Made by a program: the position numbers and the translations under genes. 9,599 nucleotides of DNA from a virus (Duplodnaviria > Heunggongvirae > Uroviricota > Caudoviricetes). The notes beneath the pieces were generated by a model. The model did not search any database. It worked only from the letters and a program-made list of their open reading frames with translations, and was not told the DNA's origin. How positions within the stretch are numbered: position 1 is the first letter of the stretch; each line of letters begins with the position of its first letter. Below, one piece after another: positions 98 to 7,784 of the stretch. Location: the IMG/VR virus record IMGVR_UViG_2713896901_000003, positions 1 through 9,599 of that record; one strand, 5' to 3'.

Positions 98-367
98 TCA
101 TTGCTTCATCTCACTTTCCATTTCATCAATGTCAACGTCATCAGGAAGGTGGGAGCAATACGCCGCTATACCATGATGATTTATCTCATACCCTTTAAAC
201 GTTACCATCTGGCGCGTAATCTCAACTTCGTTCAGGAATCCGCCATCGCATAACTGCCTGGCTATTTTCGATTTGGTCTGGATTATTGGTAGTGCCTGTT
301 CTTTCAAAGCGTATGATATTTGTGCATCCCATGCCTTTTCGAGAATGGCTAATTGTTTTTTATTCAT
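98..367 (-). CDS. Hypothetical 89-aa protein in the lambda ren / P22 ninA slot
   Basis: ORF-track entry. Its ATG (365-367) overlaps the helicase TGA stop (367-369) as ATGA, which suggests translational coupling. An intrinsic terminator follows. I recognise no motif in the protein. Confidence 0.7.
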   Translation of the reverse strand: MNKKQLAILEKAWDAQISYALKEQALPIIQTKSKIARQLCDGGFLNEVEITRQMVTFKGYEINHHGIAAYCSHLPDDVDIDEMESEMKQ

Positions 368-1803
368 CAGAATCCTCCTTTCTTCTTGGACTGCGGTTCC
401 TCGCGTTCACGGCGGCGCATTTCAGCAGACTGTTGGTCTGTGTCATAAATAGCGCCATTTGCCTGAATGCAATACACCGTGCCGGTATTGCCATGACGAT
501 TGAGACGAAGGATTAGTTCGGTTTCACCAGGTGGAACACTGTCATCAAAAGCACCTTCACGATGGATCCCCACCCAATAATCGCAATCCTGTTCAATCTG
601 CCCTGTATCTCGGGAGTCACTTGGTAATGGGCGTTTATTGGTTCGGCTTTCCAGTGCGCGGTTAAGCTGTGTCAGAAGCACAACAACGCAATCAAGCTCT
701 TTGGCAAGGTTCTTCAGTCCTTTGGTGATCATGCCGTAGGCAAGGTCGTTACGATCGGCCTTTTCAGCGGTCATTAGTGTCAGGTAATCGACAAGAATCA
801 TGCCAACGCATCCTTTTTCTCGTTTGATTCGACGGCTTTCGCTGACGATTTGAGCCAAAGATAATCCCGGCGTGTCGTCGATGTAAAGCAGGTCGATTTC
901 ACTCAAGCGATTGGCTGTTTCTATCGCCCTGTTGAAGTCACCATCGTAATCACCCTGATAGCCGTCATCAGCGTCATTTGTCGCCGGAAGGTAAAAAATA
1001 TTCGGGTTAACACCTGACTTCTGCCCTACCAGTTTTTCCAGTATCTGGTCACTTGGCATTTCAAGGCTGAACATCAGAGCGGGCTTTTTCTCATGCACTG
1101 CGCAGTTGATTGCCATCTGGCTGTATAGCGTCGTTTTCCCCATCTTAGGGCGAGCGCCAATGACAAACAGAGAGCCTTTCACCAGACCTTTCGGTGACAG
1201 CATCCTGTCCAGCGATGGGATCCCTGTGCTCATTCCTCGTTGTTCGCCTGACGGGTCAAATCGCTTCTCAAGGTCGCTAACCCAGTCTTCCATGACCTCA
1301 CCAAATGAGCGAAGGCCGCGACGCGATCCGGTTTTTGCATGGTCTGTCAGTTGCGTGAAAATCGCCTGAATAGCTTCGTACTTCTGCGTCGCAGTCATTC
1401 CGTTGCGGGAATAGAGCAATTCCGTCGCTTCAGTCATGCGGTTGATGGCGTAGCGTTCCATTGCGGTTTCGCGAACCTGCATTGCATAGGCAACGATGTT
1501 TGCGGCGCTTGGCGTGTTCTTTGCGATCTCAGCGATATAAGCAAAACCGCCAACAGACGCCGTTAACGATTTACGCTCCAGTTCATCGAAAAGCGTCAGG
1601 CCATCTACTGGCTTTTGCTCCCGGTGCATTCTGATTATTTCTTCGAAAAGGATTTTGTGTGGTCGGCTGTAAAATGAATCAGGCTTCAGCATCGCCAGAA
1701 CTTTCTGGACGCGCTCACTGCTGTCATCATCCAGAAGCAATCCACCAATCACCGCCTGCTCTGCCTCGATGCTATGGGGCGGCGCATAAAAATTATCGGT
1801 CAT
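367..1803 (-). CDS. DnaB-family replicative DNA helicase (functional analogue of P22 gene 12)
   Basis: The N-terminus PPHSIEAEQAVIGGLLLD is typical of DnaB. Other DnaB motifs are present: Walker A GARPKMGKT, the VDYLTLM motif and the LTQLNR motif. I prefer the ATG at 1803 (GAGGG 8 nt upstream) over the GTG at 1818 given in the track. The start overlaps the end of the upstream initiator gene. Confidence 0.95.
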   Translation of the reverse strand: MTDNFYAPPHSIEAEQAVIGGLLLDDDSSERVQKVLAMLKPDSFYSRPHKILFEEIIRMHREQKPVDGLTLFDELERKSLTASVGGFAYIAEIAKNTPSAANIVAYAMQVRETAMERYAINRMTEATELLYSRNGMTATQKYEAIQAIFTQLTDHAKTGSRRGLRSFGEVMEDWVSDLEKRFDPSGEQRGMSTGIPSLDRMLSPKGLVKGSLFVIGARPKMGKTTLYSQMAINCAVHEKKPALMFSLEMPSDQILEKLVGQKSGVNPNIFYLPATNDADDGYQGDYDGDFNRAIETANRLSEIDLLYIDDTPGLSLAQIVSESRRIKREKGCVGMILVDYLTLMTAEKADRNDLAYGMITKGLKNLAKELDCVVVLLTQLNRALESRTNKRPLPSDSRDTGQIEQDCDYWVGIHREGAFDDSVPPGETELILRLNRHGNTGTVYCIQANGAIYDTDQQSAEMRRREREEPQSKKKGGF

Positions 1804-2692
1804 CGTGTTCACCCTCACGAACTTTCAGGTAGGTATTATCGTTAAGCAGGAAATCAAATCCCTTTTTGTGCCAGACAGTTCCGCGTTGATGGTTTGGGCG
1901 CTCTTCGAACATCCATCGGCAATTTTCGCCTACGTAGCTCAAATAATTTCTCCAGTCCTGCATCGAGAACCCATGCCCGTCAAGCTGGCGGGTTATAACT
2001 CCGGCTTTGCGCCAGAACGTTCGGATCTGGTTTTTACGCTTGTCATTCAGTGCGCGGATTCTTGGCGCTTCAGGAAGGATTTCGTGGTAAGCATCGACAA
2101 CATCCTGACAGCTGACGGAAGGTTTTTTCTTGTCAGACTTTTTGTCTGCTGTGGCACTCTCTAATACGTCAGTATTAGAGATAATATTATTATATTCTTT
2201 ATCTGTGGTAATTTGCTGGTAATCTGCTGGTACTGTATTGCTTACAGGCATTGGTATTGCTGGCTTTGAGGTGGTAATTTGCTGGTAATCTGCTGGTACA
2301 AAATTTGACTGATAATCGTCATATTTCTCTACCGAGAAAACTGAGAATTTACCGTGTGAAACCCAGTCAATCATGCCGAGTTTTTTGAACTTTCTAAGCA
2401 GGTACTGAACGCGATCTGGTTTGAGTCCTGTTTCAAACGCCAGAGAGTTTCTACCGCCAAGTAGCTTCCCTCTGCCTACCAGAATTTCTCCTGCGTCAGT
2501 CATTACATACTCAGGCGTATGCTTTGCTTTGAGGATTAAGTGAACCCACAGATGCGCTGCTTCTGCGTCCTTGTAAAACGGCACATCCATAATTTTACGG
2601 TGCAGCAAGGCATACCCCTTACCGCTGCTTTGATGCGGTCGTTGTAGCCTTCTGGCCTCTCTGGCTTCGGCTAGATTAGATATGTTACTCAT
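1793..2692 (-). CDS. Replication initiation protein (functional analogue of lambda O / P22 gp18) containing the ori iterons
   Basis: It lies directly upstream of the helicase gene and overlaps it. Iterons plus an AT-rich tract sit in the middle of the gene, as in lambda O. There is an AAGGAG Shine-Dalgarno 7 nt upstream of the ATG at 2690-2692. Confidence 0.85.
2205..2299. repeat. Putative phage origin iterons, with the adjacent AT-rich unwinding tract at 2161..2204
   Basis: The 29-bp sequence GTGGTAATTTGCTGGTAATCTGCTGGTAC occurs twice without mismatch, at 2205-2233 and 2271-2299. Each copy holds two GGTAAT(T/C)TGCTGG units. A degenerate unit, GGTATTGCTGG, lies between them at 2253-2263. The flanking tract CTAATACGTCAGTATTAGAGATAATATTATTATATTCTTTATC is very AT-rich. 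Confidence 0.8.
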
Positions 2693-3547: not shown

Positions 3548-3584
3548 TAACCTTTGTTATTTTACTTTGGATAACCGTAGTTAT
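3522..3584. promoter_or_regulatory. Tripartite right operator OR1-OR3 (ATAAC-N4-GTTAT palindromes)
   Basis: ATAACTCAAGTTAT lies at 3522-3535, ATAACCTTTGTTAT at 3547-3560 and ATAACCGTAGTTAT at 3571-3584. Centre-to-centre spacing is 25 and 24 bp. The sites overlap the pR -10/spacer, abut both -35 elements, and overlap the pRM spacer/-10. Confidence 0.8.
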
Positions 3585-3589
3585 AGATT
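3561..3589 (+). promoter_or_regulatory. Candidate pRM promoter
   Basis: TTTACT (3561-3566), 17 nt, TAGATT (3584-3589). TAGATT is the lambda pRM -10 hexamer. The predicted transcription start falls at or next to the cI ATG at 3597, which implies a leaderless cI mRNA as in lambda. Confidence 0.55.
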
Positions 3590-3596
3590 TGTGGGT

Positions 3597-4304
3597 ATGA
3601 AAACATTCGCAGAAAGACTAAATGCAGCCATGAGCTCAGCAGGTGTGTCGCAATCACAGCTTGCTGACATGGTTGGAATATCTCAGCCAGCCATACAGAA
3701 GATGTCATCCGGTAAAACAAACGGATCTCGCAAGATGGTTGAATTAGCCAATGCTTTAAAAGTACGCCCTGAATGGCTTAGCTCTGGTATTGGTGAAATG
3801 AGGGATGGTACACATGAAGAACCATCCAATGTCCGTGAATCATCTTTAAAAGCTGTGGTATGGGAAGATATTAAAAGAAACGATGACGAGTTTGTCGCGT
3901 TGCCTCTTCTTAACGTTTCGCTTTCAGCTGGAAACGGTAGCTGCGAGCTAGAGGAATCATCAGAGTTCTCTTTGGTTTTCAGAAAGTACTATCTGAAAAA
4001 GATGGGGGTATCTGAAAGATCAGCCAAGCTAGTTAGGGTTGTAGGGCAAAGCATGGAACCAACGCTTCACGACGGAGATGTTGTTGGTGTTAACACACAA
4101 GATACCACAATCAGAGATGGTAAAACCTACGCTATTTGCCAGTCTGATTTGTTACGAGTAAAAACATTAATCGCCACCCCTACATCGGTGATAATCAGAT
4201 CAATAAATCGCGAAGAGTACCCAGATGAAGTAATGGATAGAGATGAATTTCATGAAACCGTAAGGATTATTGGCAGAGTATTCTGGTCGTCTCATAGTTG
4301 GTAA
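3597..4304 (+). CDS. cI: CI prophage repressor (N-terminal HTH plus C-terminal LexA/S24-type autocleavage domain)
   Basis: HTH segment SQSQLADMVGISQPAIQKMSSG. A candidate Ala-Gly cleavage site lies in LSAGNGS. The catalytic Ser context is GQSMEPT and the Lys context is LRVKTL. It is divergent from cro across the operators. I prefer the ATG at 3597 over the TTG at 3567 in the track, because that TTG lies inside the operator/promoter region. Confidence 0.9.
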   Translation: MKTFAERLNAAMSSAGVSQSQLADMVGISQPAIQKMSSGKTNGSRKMVELANALKVRPEWLSSGIGEMRDGTHEEPSNVRESSLKAVVWEDIKRNDDEFVALPLLNVSLSAGNGSCELEESSEFSLVFRKYYLKKMGVSERSAKLVRVVGQSMEPTLHDGDVVGVNTQDTTIRDGKTYAICQSDLLRVKTLIATPTSVIIRSINREEYPDEVMDRDEFHETVRIIGRVFWSSHSW

Positions 4305-4344: not shown

Positions 4345-4641
4345 ATGGAATTTCTGATAGTTTTTGTTGTTGTTTTGGTCATCATTCTTTTTGTTTTGCT
4401 AAGCATTAGCAAAAAGCTATCTCAAATGATTGAACATAGCTCTAATCGCGCAAAAGAAGAAGACCATCTAATTGATATAAAAGAGATTCTCTCTGATATA
4501 AAAATCACATTAGATGAAATAAAATACACAACAGATCTAATTGAACAGTATAAAATACCAACCCCAAACGAAAGAAAAGCAATAGATCAATATCGTATTG
4601 ACTTAGAAATCGACGAAATGCTAAGCAAAAGAAAAGACTAA
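4345..4641 (+). CDS. 98-aa single-pass membrane protein with an acidic helical C-terminal domain, in the rex slot; function unknown
   Basis: GGAGGG Shine-Dalgarno just upstream of the ATG. The N-terminal hydrophobic segment EFLIVFVVVLVIILFVLLSI is followed by KK. The rest is I/L/E/K/D-rich with a heptad-like pattern. It starts 41 nt after the cI stop on the same strand and is followed by a strong terminator. Confidence 0.8.
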   Translation: MEFLIVFVVVLVIILFVLLSISKKLSQMIEHSSNRAKEEDHLIDIKEILSDIKITLDEIKYTTDLIEQYKIPTPNERKAIDQYRIDLEIDEMLSKRKD

Positions 4642-4645
4642 AAAC

Positions 4646-4673
4646 ACCCGGCCTCAGCGCCGGGTTTTCTTTT
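4646..4673 (+). terminator. Intrinsic terminator ending the cI operon
   Basis: A perfect 7-bp GC-rich stem, ACCCGGC (4646-4652) / GCCGGGT (4659-4665), with a 6-nt loop, followed by TTTTCTTTT. Confidence 0.85.
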
Positions 4674-4838: not shown

Positions 4839-4877
4839 ATAAACTAAGTTATTGACCACACCTATAACCTAAGTTAT
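4839..4877. promoter_or_regulatory. Left operators OL2 and OL1
   Basis: ATAAACTAAGTTAT at 4839-4852 has one mismatch to the OR consensus. ATAACCTAAGTTAT at 4864-4877 is perfect. Spacing is 25 bp. More degenerate candidates lie at 4795-4808 (AATACCTTTGTTAT) and about 4818-4831. Confidence 0.7.
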
Positions 4878-4881
4878 CTTT
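4853..4881 (+). promoter_or_regulatory. pL promoter
   Basis: TTGACC (4853-4858), 17 nt, TATCTT (4876-4881). OL1 lies in the spacer/-10 and OL2 abuts the -35, a mirror image of pR. Confidence 0.75.
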
Positions 4882-4926: not shown

Positions 4927-4964
4927 GCTCTTTAACATTGATGGAATGGGGATGATTCGTCCCC
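4927..4964 (+). promoter_or_regulatory. nutL (boxA plus boxB)
   Basis: GCTCTTTAACA (4927-4937) matches the boxA consensus. A 10-nt spacer follows, then GGGGATGATTCGTCCCC (4948-4964), which is identical to the nutR boxB. Confidence 0.8.
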
Positions 4965-5119
4965 ACCAAAGAGAGGTTGGCTTTGGGATTTGATGAATGT
5001 GCAGGTCGATGCACTAACGCTTAGCGGTGAGCACCTGCCTTTGGGGCAGGATGGGTAGCCGCAATCAGGAGATCGACACCTGACATCAAATCACCAAAGT
5101 CAATCATCGGAGGTATCCA

Positions 5120-5326
5120 GTGAAAGCAAGAGAGATTCGCAAACTCGAACGCGCTCGTAAGCACAAAGAGGCGACAGCAAAACGTAAAAATATTGACCGT
5201 GTTTCAATGGTGGTTTCGCTAGCAGGAGCGAATAGGAAGAAGGTTGAATGTGGTTCGTGCTGCCTGCCAAACGTAGCTCTTTACGCAGCAGGCTACCGGA
5301 AATCAAAACAACTGACAGCAAGATGA
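5120..5326 (+). CDS. N: N-type transcription antiterminator (P22 gp24-like C-terminal half)
   Basis: GTG start with GGAGG 6 nt upstream. The N-terminus is arginine/lysine-rich: KAREIRKLERARKHKEATAKRK. The C-terminal IDRV...SLAG...VALYAAGYRKSKQLTAR resembles P22 gp24 as I recall it (IDRVTKAISLAGTRQKEVEGGSVLLPGVALYAAGHRKSKQITAR). It is the first gene after pL/nutL. Confidence 0.85.
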   Translation: MKAREIRKLERARKHKEATAKRKNIDRVSMVVSLAGANRKKVECGSCCLPNVALYAAGYRKSKQLTAR

Positions 5327-5376
5327 CTTGTGTTGGTCGCCAGAAAATGAAATTAGGCAGCAAACCACTTATTTGA
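5326..5376 (+). pseudogene. Fossil 3' end of a lambda/phage-21-type N gene
   Basis: It translates as TCVGRQKMKLGSKPLI followed by a stop. Compare the lambda N C-terminus ITCSGRQKIKGKSIPLI and the phage 21 N C-terminus VTCVGRQKIKLGSKPLI, both as I recall them. It lies in the -1 frame relative to the intact N gene and begins at that gene's stop codon. Confidence 0.6.
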
Positions 5377-5387
5377 GAGGAATTAAT

Positions 5388-6011
5388 ATGTCATCAATCC
5401 GCTTAACTACGAGAATGAAAGAGGAAATCGCTCGTAACGCTTTAATTAAGTCTGGGGTTTTCACTGAACTTGAAGAAGTAACAAAGTTAAAGAACCAGCT
5501 TGCACTTGACGCCAGAGTTATTGCGTTTGGCGGAAAAAAGAAAACTGAGGAAGTGGACAAGCTGGCATCAAACTTAATGGCTATAAGTGAAGAACTTCAA
5601 AAGGTGGGATGTTCATTTTACTCATGCGATGTTCGTTCTACATCAATTTATCTGACTGTATCTGGCAGAAGGGTGGGATGGCATTCATATGGGAAAGACG
5701 GCAACGGTGAAGATATATTGCTTCCCACCCCAGAAAAAGATAAATGCATGTTTGATGCAGAACACGAAATAACAAAAAGGTTTGATGAAATCTGCGCATT
5801 GCAACAAAAACTTGAATCCAGGAAAAAGGATATCGAATCAAATGTATGGGCTGCTTTGAACTCAGTCACAACAGTTAAGCGACTTATTGAAGTTTGGCCT
5901 GAAAGCAAAGAATTGCTACCAAAAGAAGCAGATAAAGCAAGTGCAGCACTTCCTGCTTTACGGGTAGAAGATTTGAATAAGATGATTGGACTTCCTTCCG
6001 AGGCCGCATAA
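5388..6011 (+). CDS. Hypothetical 207-aa protein, first cargo gene after N
   Basis: ORF-track frame. I prefer the ATG at 5388 (GAGAGG 7 nt upstream) over the TTG at 5328, which would overlap the N fossil. The gene is AT-rich relative to the lambda-like block, and its own terminator follows. Confidence 0.85.
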   Translation: MSSIRLTTRMKEEIARNALIKSGVFTELEEVTKLKNQLALDARVIAFGGKKKTEEVDKLASNLMAISEELQKVGCSFYSCDVRSTSIYLTVSGRRVGWHSYGKDGNGEDILLPTPEKDKCMFDAEHEITKRFDEICALQQKLESRKKDIESNVWAALNSVTTVKRLIEVWPESKELLPKEADKASAALPALRVEDLNKMIGLPSEAA

Positions 6012-6026
6012 TCGGCCTTTATTTTT
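6001..6026 (+). terminator. Intrinsic terminator after the 207-aa gene
   Basis: Stem AGGCCG (6001-6006) / CGGCCT (6013-6018). The loop CATAAT contains the stop codon. TTATTTTT follows. Confidence 0.65.
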
Positions 6027-6074
6027 GGCATAAACAACAGAATAAACACTGCACTGAATTATTTGAGGTTAGAT

Positions 6075-6545
6075 ATGACAAAATCATGGAGCGTACCTTT
6101 TCCTGAATCAGAAACTGAACATGAGGGAATGCCTGTTTTCTGGAGATTCCAGGCGACAGTTGAAGAAGATGGAATCAAAATATTCGCACTTCAATATATA
6201 GCTTTTCATCAGACAGAGCATTATGCATGGTTGGTTCCTGCGCATTGGATTGTTAATTTTAAACCAGCACCAAATCAGTGGTTACAGGAATGGAAACAAA
6301 GGAGAAATAGATATGCAATTAAGAAAGTAGCAAAAAATGCAGAAAGATCTTTTGCATTCCCAACGAAGAAACTTGCCATTGAAAGTTTATTGCGCCGGAA
6401 GAAATACCATTTAATGAGAATCAAACAAGATTTGGCTGTTGTATCAACTCTTGTTGATGGGATGAAGAATATTGATACATCAACACCAGATATTGAATAT
6501 AACTTTGGACACAACCAAGAAACAGAAAATTGGGTGTTTTATTAG
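6075..6545 (+). CDS. Hypothetical 156-aa protein with a strongly basic central segment
   Basis: ORF-track frame. I prefer the ATG at 6075 (GAGG 6 nt upstream) over the TTG at 6063. The central segment is KQRRNRYAIKKVAKNAERSFAFPTKKLAIESLLRRKKYHLMRIK, flanked by acidic and aromatic ends. Confidence 0.85.
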   Translation: MTKSWSVPFPESETEHEGMPVFWRFQATVEEDGIKIFALQYIAFHQTEHYAWLVPAHWIVNFKPAPNQWLQEWKQRRNRYAIKKVAKNAERSFAFPTKKLAIESLLRRKKYHLMRIKQDLAVVSTLVDGMKNIDTSTPDIEYNFGHNQETENWVFY

Positions 6546-6589: not shown

Positions 6590-6649
6590 AGCAATGTCGC
6601 TCGTAACTAAACAGGAGCCGACTTGTTCTGATTATTGGAAATCTTCTTT

Positions 6650-6675
6650 GCCCTCTAATGTGAGGGCGATTTTTT
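6650..6675 (+). terminator. Intrinsic terminator upstream of the 122-aa gene
   Basis: Stem GCCCTC (6650-6655) / GAGGGC (6662-6667) with loop TAATGT, followed by GATTTTTT. Confidence 0.7.
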
Positions 6676-6695
6676 ATCTATGAGGATATGAATAG

Positions 6696-7064
6696 ATGTC
6701 AAACATCAAAAAATACATCATTGATTGCGACTGGAAAGCATCAATAGAAATTGAAATCGACCATGACGTAATGACAGAGGAAAAACTTCACCAGATTAAT
6801 AATTTCTGGTCAGACTCTGAATACCGACTCAATAAACACGGCTCTGTATTAAATGCTGTATTAATCATGCTGGCGCAACATGCTCTGCTTATAGCAATTT
6901 CAAGCGACTTAAATGCATATGGTGTTGTGTGTGAGTTCGACTGGAATGATGGAAATGGTCAGGAAGGATGGCCTCCAATGGATGGTAGCGAAGGAATAAG
7001 AATTACCGATATCGATACATCAGGAATATTTGATTCAGATGATATGACTATCAAAGCCGCCTGA
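6696..7064 (+). CDS. Hypothetical, highly acidic 122-aa protein
   Basis: ORF-track entry with GAGGA upstream. By my count the translation has 22 Asp/Glu against 8 Lys/Arg. The acidity is concentrated in the C-terminal third: FDWNDGNGQEGWPPMDGSEGIRITDIDTSGIFDSDDM. Confidence 0.85.
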   Translation: MSNIKKYIIDCDWKASIEIEIDHDVMTEEKLHQINNFWSDSEYRLNKHGSVLNAVLIMLAQHALLIAISSDLNAYGVVCEFDWNDGNGQEGWPPMDGSEGIRITDIDTSGIFDSDDMTIKAA

Positions 7065-7089
7065 GCGCTGCGTTACCGCATACCAATAA

Positions 7090-7110
7090 CGCTTCACTCG
7101 AGGCGTTTTT
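7090..7110 (+). terminator. Intrinsic terminator between the cargo genes and cIII
   Basis: Stem CGCTTC (7090-7095) / GAGGCG (7100-7105) with one G-U pair and loop ACTC, followed by TTTTT. Confidence 0.6.
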
Positions 7111-7136
7111 CGTTATGTATAAATAAGGAGCACACC

Positions 7137-7301: not shown

Positions 7302-7413
7302 ATTCACTATCGCCACTTTTATTGGCGATGAAAAGATGTTTCGTGAGGCCGTCGACGCTTATAAAAAATGGATATTAATACTGAAACTGAGATCAAGCAA
7401 AAGCATTCACTAA
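7270..7413 (+). CDS. kil: Kil, host cell-division (FtsZ) inhibitor, 47 aa
   Basis: [47 protein letters not shown] matches lambda Kil as I recall it. The gene overlaps the 3' end of cIII as in lambda. The 89-aa ORF in the track is an upstream in-frame extension of it. Confidence 0.85.
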
Positions 7414-7784
7414 CCCACTTCCCTGTTTTCCTAATCAGCCCGGCATTTCGCGGGCGATATTTTCACAGCTATTTCAGGAGTTCAGCCATGAACGCTTATT
7501 ACATTCAGGATCGTCTTGAGGCTCAGAGCTGGACGCGTCACTACCAGCAGATCGCCCGTGAAGAGAAAGAGGCAGAACTGGCAGACGACATGGAAAAAGG
7601 CCTGCCCCAGCACCTGTTTGAATCGCTATGCATCGATCATTTGCAACGCCACGGGGCCAGCAAAAAAGCCATTACCCGTGCGTTTGATGACGATGTTGAG
7701 TTTCAGGAGCGCATGGCAGAACACATCCGGTACATGGTTGAAACCATTGCTCACCATCAGGTTGATATTGATTCAGAGGTATAA
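7368..7784 (+). CDS. gam: Gam, RecBCD inhibitor (138-aa long form; the 98-aa GamS form starts at the ATG at 7488)
   Basis: [15 protein letters not shown]...[15 protein letters not shown]...[10 protein letters not shown] is near-identical to lambda Gam as I recall it. An internal start at 7488 has CAGGAG upstream. Confidence 0.95.

Follow-up and report, generated by a model that had tools for sequence, protein, structure and literature searches.

The 9,599-nucleotide stretch of phage DNA analysed here (the window) represents the early region of a lambdoid phage, and the gene that comes first after the N antiterminator encodes a genuine, full-length member of the already known, uncharacterised Nmad5 family, a sequence-based assignment of which we are certain. 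Our results indicate that the name of this family probably misdescribes its function, and we tentatively favour, with a confidence somewhat short of even, the view that the protein is an early accessory factor without enzymatic activity, active at the interface of phage DNA replication and host defence. Within this window it is an ordinary accessory gene, already catalogued and recognised correctly in the preliminary description of the DNA; the analysis adds the evidence on the name, together with a defined residue and a phage for testing. The window carries the following features:

367-1818, minus strand: DnaB-like helicase gene
1793-2692, minus strand: O-like initiator gene
minus strand: cII-like and cro-like genes
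3567-4304, plus strand: cI-like repressor gene
4345-4665 region, plus strand: 98-aa membrane ORF with a hydrophobic N-terminus (phrog_18389, function: unknown)
4852-4880, plus strand: pL-like sigma-70 promoter found by consensus scan (TTGACC-17-TATCTT)
4927-4965, plus strand: nutL-like site, with boxA GCTCTTTAACA at 4927-4937 and a boxB-like hairpin at 4947-4965
5120-5326, plus strand: short N antiterminator gene, 68 aa, GTG start (PF25694, E = 2.7e-16; phrog_271)
5327-5387, plus strand: cassette leader with a GAGAGGA ribosome-binding site
5388-6011, plus strand: Nmad5-family gene under study, ATG at 5388, TAA at 6009-6011, 207 aa
5868-5921, plus strand: most conserved motif of the protein (residues 161-178), T-T-x-K-R-L-I-x-x-W-P-E-x-x-E-L-L-P, which includes R165
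5949-5996, plus strand: conserved C-terminal tail (residues 188-203), L-P-A-L-x-V-x-D-L-N-x-x-I-G-L-P
6000-6027, plus strand: intrinsic terminator, GAGGCCG-CATAAT-CGGCCTT followed by TATTTTT, with the stop codon in the loop
6063-6545, plus strand: 160-aa gene, function: unknown (phrog_1636, E = 8e-112)
6696-7064, plus strand: Ea10/DUF2528 gene, after which come cIII, kil, gam, bet and exo

The 207-aa open reading frame that had been proposed at 5388-6011 was borne out with the same limits, and both peptides quoted from it were found in its translation, at residues 4-23 (IRLTTRMKEEIARNALIKSG) and 88-113 (YLTVSGRRVGWHSYGKDGNGEDILLP). The GAGAGGA site lies 7 nt 5′ of the ATG, and the N-terminus M-[ST]-x-[IV]-R-L-T is the start of all homologues. 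Given the size of the family, with 2689 cluster representatives at 50% identity matching a profile of 24 relatives at E <= 1e-3, and the median dN/dS of 0.25 measured against 58 distinct close alleles, the comparison indicates that this is no chance reading frame. A start at TTG 5328, which would give a protein of 227 aa, was rejected, as it is used by 0 homologues and the GAGAGGA site fits the ATG at 5388. An antisense reading frame at 5648-6049 was taken as spurious, since it lies within a gene under purifying selection.

A resemblance to Nmad5 proteins had been suggested loosely, and this guess was fully confirmed: the protein matches PF18757 with an E value of 2.2e-70 and 237.4 bits against a cut-off of 27, its residues 4-203 lying on profile positions 1-206 of 206, and RefSeq gives the E. 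coli copies the same name ('Nmad5 family putative nucleotide modification protein'). It also matches phrog_1965 (function: unknown) with an E value of 4.4e-82; no NCBIfam model matched the protein, nor did any PADLOC model at E <= 0.01. The closest copies, with a protein identity of 93-96%, are found in E. coli prophages, mEp235, HK542, HK244, Kapi1 and Stx1a phages, and at the DNA level 77 phage records, including mEp235, HK542, HK244, PhiR12 and Stx1a/Stx2a phages, hold copies with 90-96% identity. About 4% of the complete E. coli genomes (211 of 5426) carry the gene, and the family spans lambdoid, N4-like, Yuavirus and Dhillonvirus phages, among others. Throughout the best 150 representatives and the 120 listed profile hits the protein keeps its stand-alone size of ~200 aa (almost all have 180-230 aa), and no domain fusion was found in either set, the 120 listed hits carrying PF18757 only. 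In 48 Stx2a phages the homology begins at about codon 34, with unrelated sequence upstream (in Stx2_716, locus L181, about 1500-2022 corresponds to window positions 5489-6011); judged by the alignment, these 48 Stx2a-converting phages hold a 5′-truncated remnant without the conserved N-terminal residues.

The gene had been described as the first after N, which is correct. The pL-like promoter lies just 3′ of the cI-side terminator, within a set of operator-like repeats, and would drive both N and the Nmad5 gene. The boxB-like hairpin of the nutL-like site (TGGGGA-7 nt-TCCCCA) has a folding prediction z-score of only -1.5. For the 61-nt spacer between N and the gene no stable RNA structure was predicted, and the consensus scan detected neither a terminator-like nor a promoter-like site in it. 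The label immediate-early is plausible, as the scan, which covers intrinsic terminators and has Rho-dependent sites outside its scope, found no terminator-like site from pL to the end of the gene, and the hairpin at 6000-6019 with its T-run is the first such site after pL. A gene transcribed before the first terminator would yield its product once the repressor is lifted, with no need for N antitermination. The N gene is itself unusually short: its 68 codons are preceded by a GGAGG site before the GTG, the N-terminus is Arg-rich, and the match to the N_peptide profile involves the C-terminal part only (positions 44-100). The 98-aa frame lies directly 3′ of cI, with a bidirectional terminator then at 4646-4665; related Stx phages have other cargo at this post-cI position, annotated as stk or H0093.

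Sequence comparison among lambdoid phages delimits a unit that consists of the leader, the gene and the terminator in a variable slot after N. The leader, roughly 60 nt from ~5327 to the ATG, is common to mEp235, whose upstream gene differs, and thus would mark the left edge of a mobile cassette. At the other end, the terminator is kept in 85 close loci, and a second lambdoid clade (<70% protein identity) has another hairpin sequence in the same place, for example CAGGTCGCTTAGGCGGCC+TTTTT; the terminator is conserved with compensating changes. In 53 of the 85 close loci the next gene upstream on the same strand belongs to the N family, and across all 85 the next same-strand genes downstream belong to at least 7 different gene clusters. 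As expected of a moron or accessory cassette, the unit has its own terminator and variable flanks, is truncated in Stx2a phages and has a Dhillonvirus counterpart that can be deleted (PMC11846954); the promoter that a moron would have for its own expression from the prophage was not found by the consensus scan.

The three cassettes between N and cIII each end in a terminator-like hairpin and T-run of their own (6000-6027, 6648-6677 and 7088-7115). The scan returned 5 terminator-like sites in 3.1 kb where 2.0 were expected, a string that N would have to override. The 160-aa gene at 6063-6545 matched nothing in Pfam, NCBIfam or PADLOC and adds another uncharacterised cassette to the post-N slot. 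Farther downstream, gam (7368-7784) is a long frame of 138 aa; VT2-Sakai annotates the same gene as a 98-aa form only.

The prediction of a helical protein was upheld by the AlphaFold2 model (built from a 45-sequence alignment; pLDDT 91.3, pTM 0.80), in which residues 8-22, 24-47 and 50-72 form helices, residues 86-100 a beta hairpin and residues 127-158 one long helix, and in which short helices lie around the C-terminal conserved motif. Confidence is lowest at the C-terminus, with block means of 67, 73 and 60 over residues 181-207. A Foldseek search of the PDB gave no match below an E value of 0.1 and no TM-score above 0.3, a search of viral models returned only other Nmad5 proteins, and the PDB searched by sequence and by profile yielded no match; likewise, the solved anti-restriction and anti-defence folds (Ocr, ArdA, Gam and similar) showed no structural or sequence similarity. 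As modelled, and the model is a confident one, the protein has a fold that is not seen among solved structures.

Conservation was measured in 145 diverse representatives. The strongest motif, at residues 161-178, contains L166, W170, E172 and P178 (99% each), P171 (97%) and T162 (94%), and in the tail N197 is invariant (100%), followed by L196 (98%) and G201 (94%). That the tail is conserved and at the same time weakly modelled would fit binding to a partner or to another subunit. The conserved positions comprise R5, L6, I14, A18, K21, G23, R43, G48, G49 and G93 in the N-terminal half, T162, K164, L166, W170, P171, E172, E175, L176 and P178 in the C-terminal motif, and L188, P189, L196, N197, G201, L202 and P203 in the tail. 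All the family-wide positions conserved at 90-100%, namely the N-terminal R-L, A18, R43, G48, G93, T162, L166, W170-P171-E172, E175-L176, P178, L196-N197 and G201-L202-P203, are present in the protein; the sole exception is position 40, which is Glu in 80% of the family and Leu (L40) here. No recurrent set of His, Cys, Asp or Ser residues typical of enzymes is conserved in the 145 representatives; an active or ligand-binding site that escapes recognition could still be made up of the conserved Arg, Lys, Glu, Asn and Thr residues. The central part (~residues 50-150) varies, and in Dhillonvirus it contains a large insertion. The charge of the protein is close to neutral (pI 6.2; family median 7.7), which does not support a DNA mimic or a strong DNA binder.

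Across other phages the commonest setting of the gene is an early or replication module, and it also behaves as a movable insert. In two clades (29 of 40 and 25 of 40 loci) it follows a DUF2800 nuclease gene and is flanked by Enc34-type SSB and family-A polymerase genes; in Acinetobacter phage Scuro it overlaps the start of the polymerase gene. It lies 3′ of a helicase gene in ECO1230-10 and in the metagenomic phage L170, one small gene downstream of the helicase-primase gene in eiAU-183, 5′ of the O gene in Vibrio phage Athena1, near the polymerase gene and immediately 5′ of an Rv2179c-like exonuclease gene in L172, and directly after a ThyX-type thymidylate synthase gene in the N4-like replication block of Pollock. 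A Microbulbifer prophage has it directly after a C5 DNA methylase gene, and in the window it lies upstream of gam-bet-exo. In Dhillonvirus and two metagenomic siphoviruses the gene is placed between the portal/MuF and the scaffold/capsid genes. The earlier view that the protein is not structural is reasonable for this phage, although some homologues adjoin head genes. In the siphoviruses L171 (2946-3542) and L175 (7001-7597), Nmad5 is the first gene of an operon that continues with a scaffold-like and a capsid gene (DUF6260) and diverges from portal and MuF, an arrangement that mirrors Dhillonvirus and constitutes a second preferred location. The position of the gene may reflect insertion hot spots more than function.

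Genetic data on the family come from Dhillonvirus. Escape of SM_S22 and SM_A8 from the Tmn defence system maps to K296E and K216E in 'nmad5', and reversion of the substitution brings back Tmn sensitivity; the gene can be deleted, yet its deletion gives no escape, and cloning of it did not succeed, apparently owing to toxicity (PMC11846954). The authors suggested a gain of function for the substitution (PMC11846954). As deletion does not relieve Tmn sensitivity, Dhillonvirus Nmad5 is not simply the trigger of Tmn. The start of the deposited SM_S22 CDS0006 (PP627283; L167 4261-5265) is misplaced by 80 codons in the 5′ direction, as the MRLT start of the family is at position 4501 of L167, and the deposited frame overlaps the scaffold gene, which lies on the opposite strand; the misplaced start explains the K296E versus K216E numbering. 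In SM_S22 the escape substitution affects the second Lys of D-K-K-L-I-K-A-W-P-E, a residue aligned with R165 of the protein studied here. In T2, Tmn is triggered by RIIB, described as a replisome-associated early protein (2026 preprint, PMC13001434). Homology between Nmad5 and T4 RIIB was considered and rejected (hhalign probability 0.9%, with 20 columns aligned).

The preliminary description had seen in the name a hint of a link to DNA modification, and this did not hold, as there is no modification enzyme in the window, no catalytic set of residues and no known enzyme fold. The neighbourhood with nucleotide or base modification enzymes that gave the family its name (the basis of the name was taken from the Pfam title and later papers) is absent around this gene, which bears on its function and not on its membership. 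In M6 and YuA the Nmad5 gene does lie inside a thymidine hypermodification cassette, and in these and related phages it is found two genes upstream of the dUMP hydroxymethylase gene (PMC9476957). The hypermodification steps of M6 have been assigned to gp51-54 and reconstituted in vitro with pure enzymes, and the Nmad5 homologue, which we identified as gp56, is absent from the proteins used (PMC8989533); the pathway that gave the family its name thus does not need it. Moreover, homologues of M6 gp51-55, gp58 and gp59 and of Pollock ThyX were found in 0 of 160 related viral loci within ~8 kb on either side (the loci, ~16 kb each, were gathered by a single peptide pattern, and enterobacterial prophages abound among them); the M6 and YuA loci alone held homologues of the M6 hypermodification enzymes. 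When three genes per side were counted in 24 clades, repressor, N, family-A DNA polymerase, DUF2800 nuclease and SSB families dominated, the leading families being HTH_3 (6), DNA_pol_A (5), Peptidase_S24 (5), DUF2800 nuclease (4) and N peptide (3); HMUDK, Thy1 and thymidylate synthase occurred once each, in M6 and Pollock only, which are reference phages added deliberately. The gene-neighbourhood check therefore gave no general association with modification enzymes over the 24 clades and 160 loci, and as far as we can see the link to nucleotide modification exists in one lineage only. It is improbable that the protein is an enzyme, or an obligatory accessory subunit, of nucleotide or DNA base modification, which in lambdoid phages would work with host enzymes or distant phage genes. 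The M6/YuA cassette and the positions in Pollock and the Microbulbifer prophage would speak for such a role, and the conserved charged cluster of R5, K21, R43, K164, E172, E175 and N197 could form a site; it is opposed by the want of a partner enzyme in the window and of the M6 enzymes in the viral loci, the reconstitution that proceeds with gp51-54, the absence of an enzyme-like fold and of catalytic-domain fusions, and the truncation of the gene in the 48 Stx2a phages.

Host defence offers two further readings. The protein could be a dedicated counter-defence protein that inhibits host immunity and is made first, like T7 Ocr, with no role in replication, and we hold this to be unlikely. Its expression straight after N and before the first terminator would suit that role, as would the variable N-to-ea10 slot, which in lambda houses ral and sieB, the variable central region with its Dhillonvirus insertion and a moron-like placement that differs between phages. 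The Dhillonvirus homologue is, in addition, dispensable, and a point mutation in it escapes Tmn (PMC11846954). Still, no PADLOC model and no solved anti-defence structure was matched, the wild-type Dhillonvirus protein gives no protection from Tmn, the protein is not acidic as DNA mimics are, and the fixed SSB-polymerase place in two clades is unusual for a free-floating anti-defence gene. The suggestion of an anti-restriction role is thus possible in a loose counter-defence sense only, on account of the post-N slot and the Tmn escape genetics (PMC11846954), and finds no likeness to known anti-restriction proteins. Far less probable is a function in prophage defence or superinfection exclusion that helps the lysogen, as with sieB or rex. 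The slot of the gene is the one that sieB has in the lambda genome, which counts for this function. The toxicity reported for a cloned homologue (PMC11846954) counts for it too; against it stand the lack of a PADLOC match and the location of the gene downstream of the repressed pL, and a lysogen-protecting role is unlikely because the scan revealed no separate promoter for the gene and strictly lytic phages (N4-like, Yuavirus, Dhillonvirus) commonly carry members of the family.

We infer instead a non-enzymatic mode of action, a link to the replisome and a role in counter-defence. In the explanation that we favour, that of an accessory protein acting between replication and defence, the cassette of leader, gene and terminator would occupy the variable slot between N and ea10/cIII, and the gene would be co-transcribed with N from pL, ahead of the first terminator. 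The product, of ~200 aa, would be built from a trio of long helices, a hairpin region that varies and a further long helix, all of them seated on a conserved base; this base would comprise the N-terminal R-L strand, helix 1 and the [KR][KR]LxxxWPExxELLP motif, after which comes the invariant LN..IGLP tail. Such a protein would work by binding through its conserved base and tail, not by catalysis; it would attach to a component of DNA replication or recombination, of the phage or of the host, and in this way would assist the DNA metabolism of the phage or protect it against a sensor of host defence. The link to replication is suggested because elsewhere the gene adjoins SSB, polymerase, helicase or O genes or an N4-like replication block, and the interplay with defence because the Lys-to-Glu change by which SM_S22 nmad5 escapes Tmn falls on the conserved basic position of R165. 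We also put forward, as a rather doubtful extension, that Nmad5 is misnamed, is no modification enzyme and founds a class of small early phage proteins of new structure, which dock onto the replication or recombination machinery via the invariant WPE / LN..IGLP surface and are read or blocked by membrane defences like Tmn; the lambdoid protein would then be a first-wave factor made with N before the first terminator.

The functional name of Nmad5 derives solely from the genes that surround it in a single phage lineage and, if it is wrong, thousands of annotations misdirect experimenters; a Dhillonvirus paper has already taken the name at its word and terms nmad5 a 'DNA modification enzyme'. 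For tests of function the lambdoid copy is convenient, as it is a single dispensable cassette in the K-12 phages mEp235 and HK542, its transcript is defined, and R165, the equivalent of the residue substituted in Tmn escape, is a defined position to mutate.

When compared with known systems, the protein resembles the Nmad5 family (PF18757, PHROG 1965) in full length, in its stand-alone size of ~200 aa and in all motifs, and differs from it in nothing at the sequence level; only the genomic link to modification enzymes is missing. Lambda ral, sieB and ea10 share with it the N-to-cIII slot, whose cargo varies among lambdoids, and the dependence on pL, but neither sequence nor fold, and the ea10 homologue of the window is a separate gene. 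In VT2-Sakai the position equivalent to the pL-like promoter is annotated as the major leftward promoter, and the boxA of the window and the leader that precedes it match the 'N-utilization leftward' site; the nutL hairpin is unlike that of the window, as expected for a different N, and an unrelated 83-aa gene occupies the post-N slot.

M6 gp56 (25.6% identity over its full length by tblastn) and YuA gp15 (44% over the C-terminal 87 residues by tblastn) are, like the protein studied here, encoded by early genes, and in M6 and YuA these lie near the DNA polymerase gene; their flanks hold 5-hmdU DNA kinase, aGPT-Pplase, radical SAM and PLP enzymes and dUMP hydroxymethylase, none of which the window has. 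Dhillonvirus nmad5 (SM_S22 CDS0006, SM_A8 CDS7), the only family member with genetics, has the same MRLT start and C-terminal WPE and LN..GIP motifs, and the LM40P1 orthologue is matched by our own family profile with an E value of 1.9e-28; unlike the lambdoid protein it has about 254 aa with the large central insertion, and its gene lies on the opposite strand inside the head-gene block and not after N. RIIB of T2 escapes Tmn through nonsense mutations (PMC13001434), whereas deletion of Dhillonvirus nmad5 brings no escape (PMC11846954); what T4/T2 RIIB and Nmad5 have in common is that the phage makes them early and that mutations in either can confer escape from Tmn.
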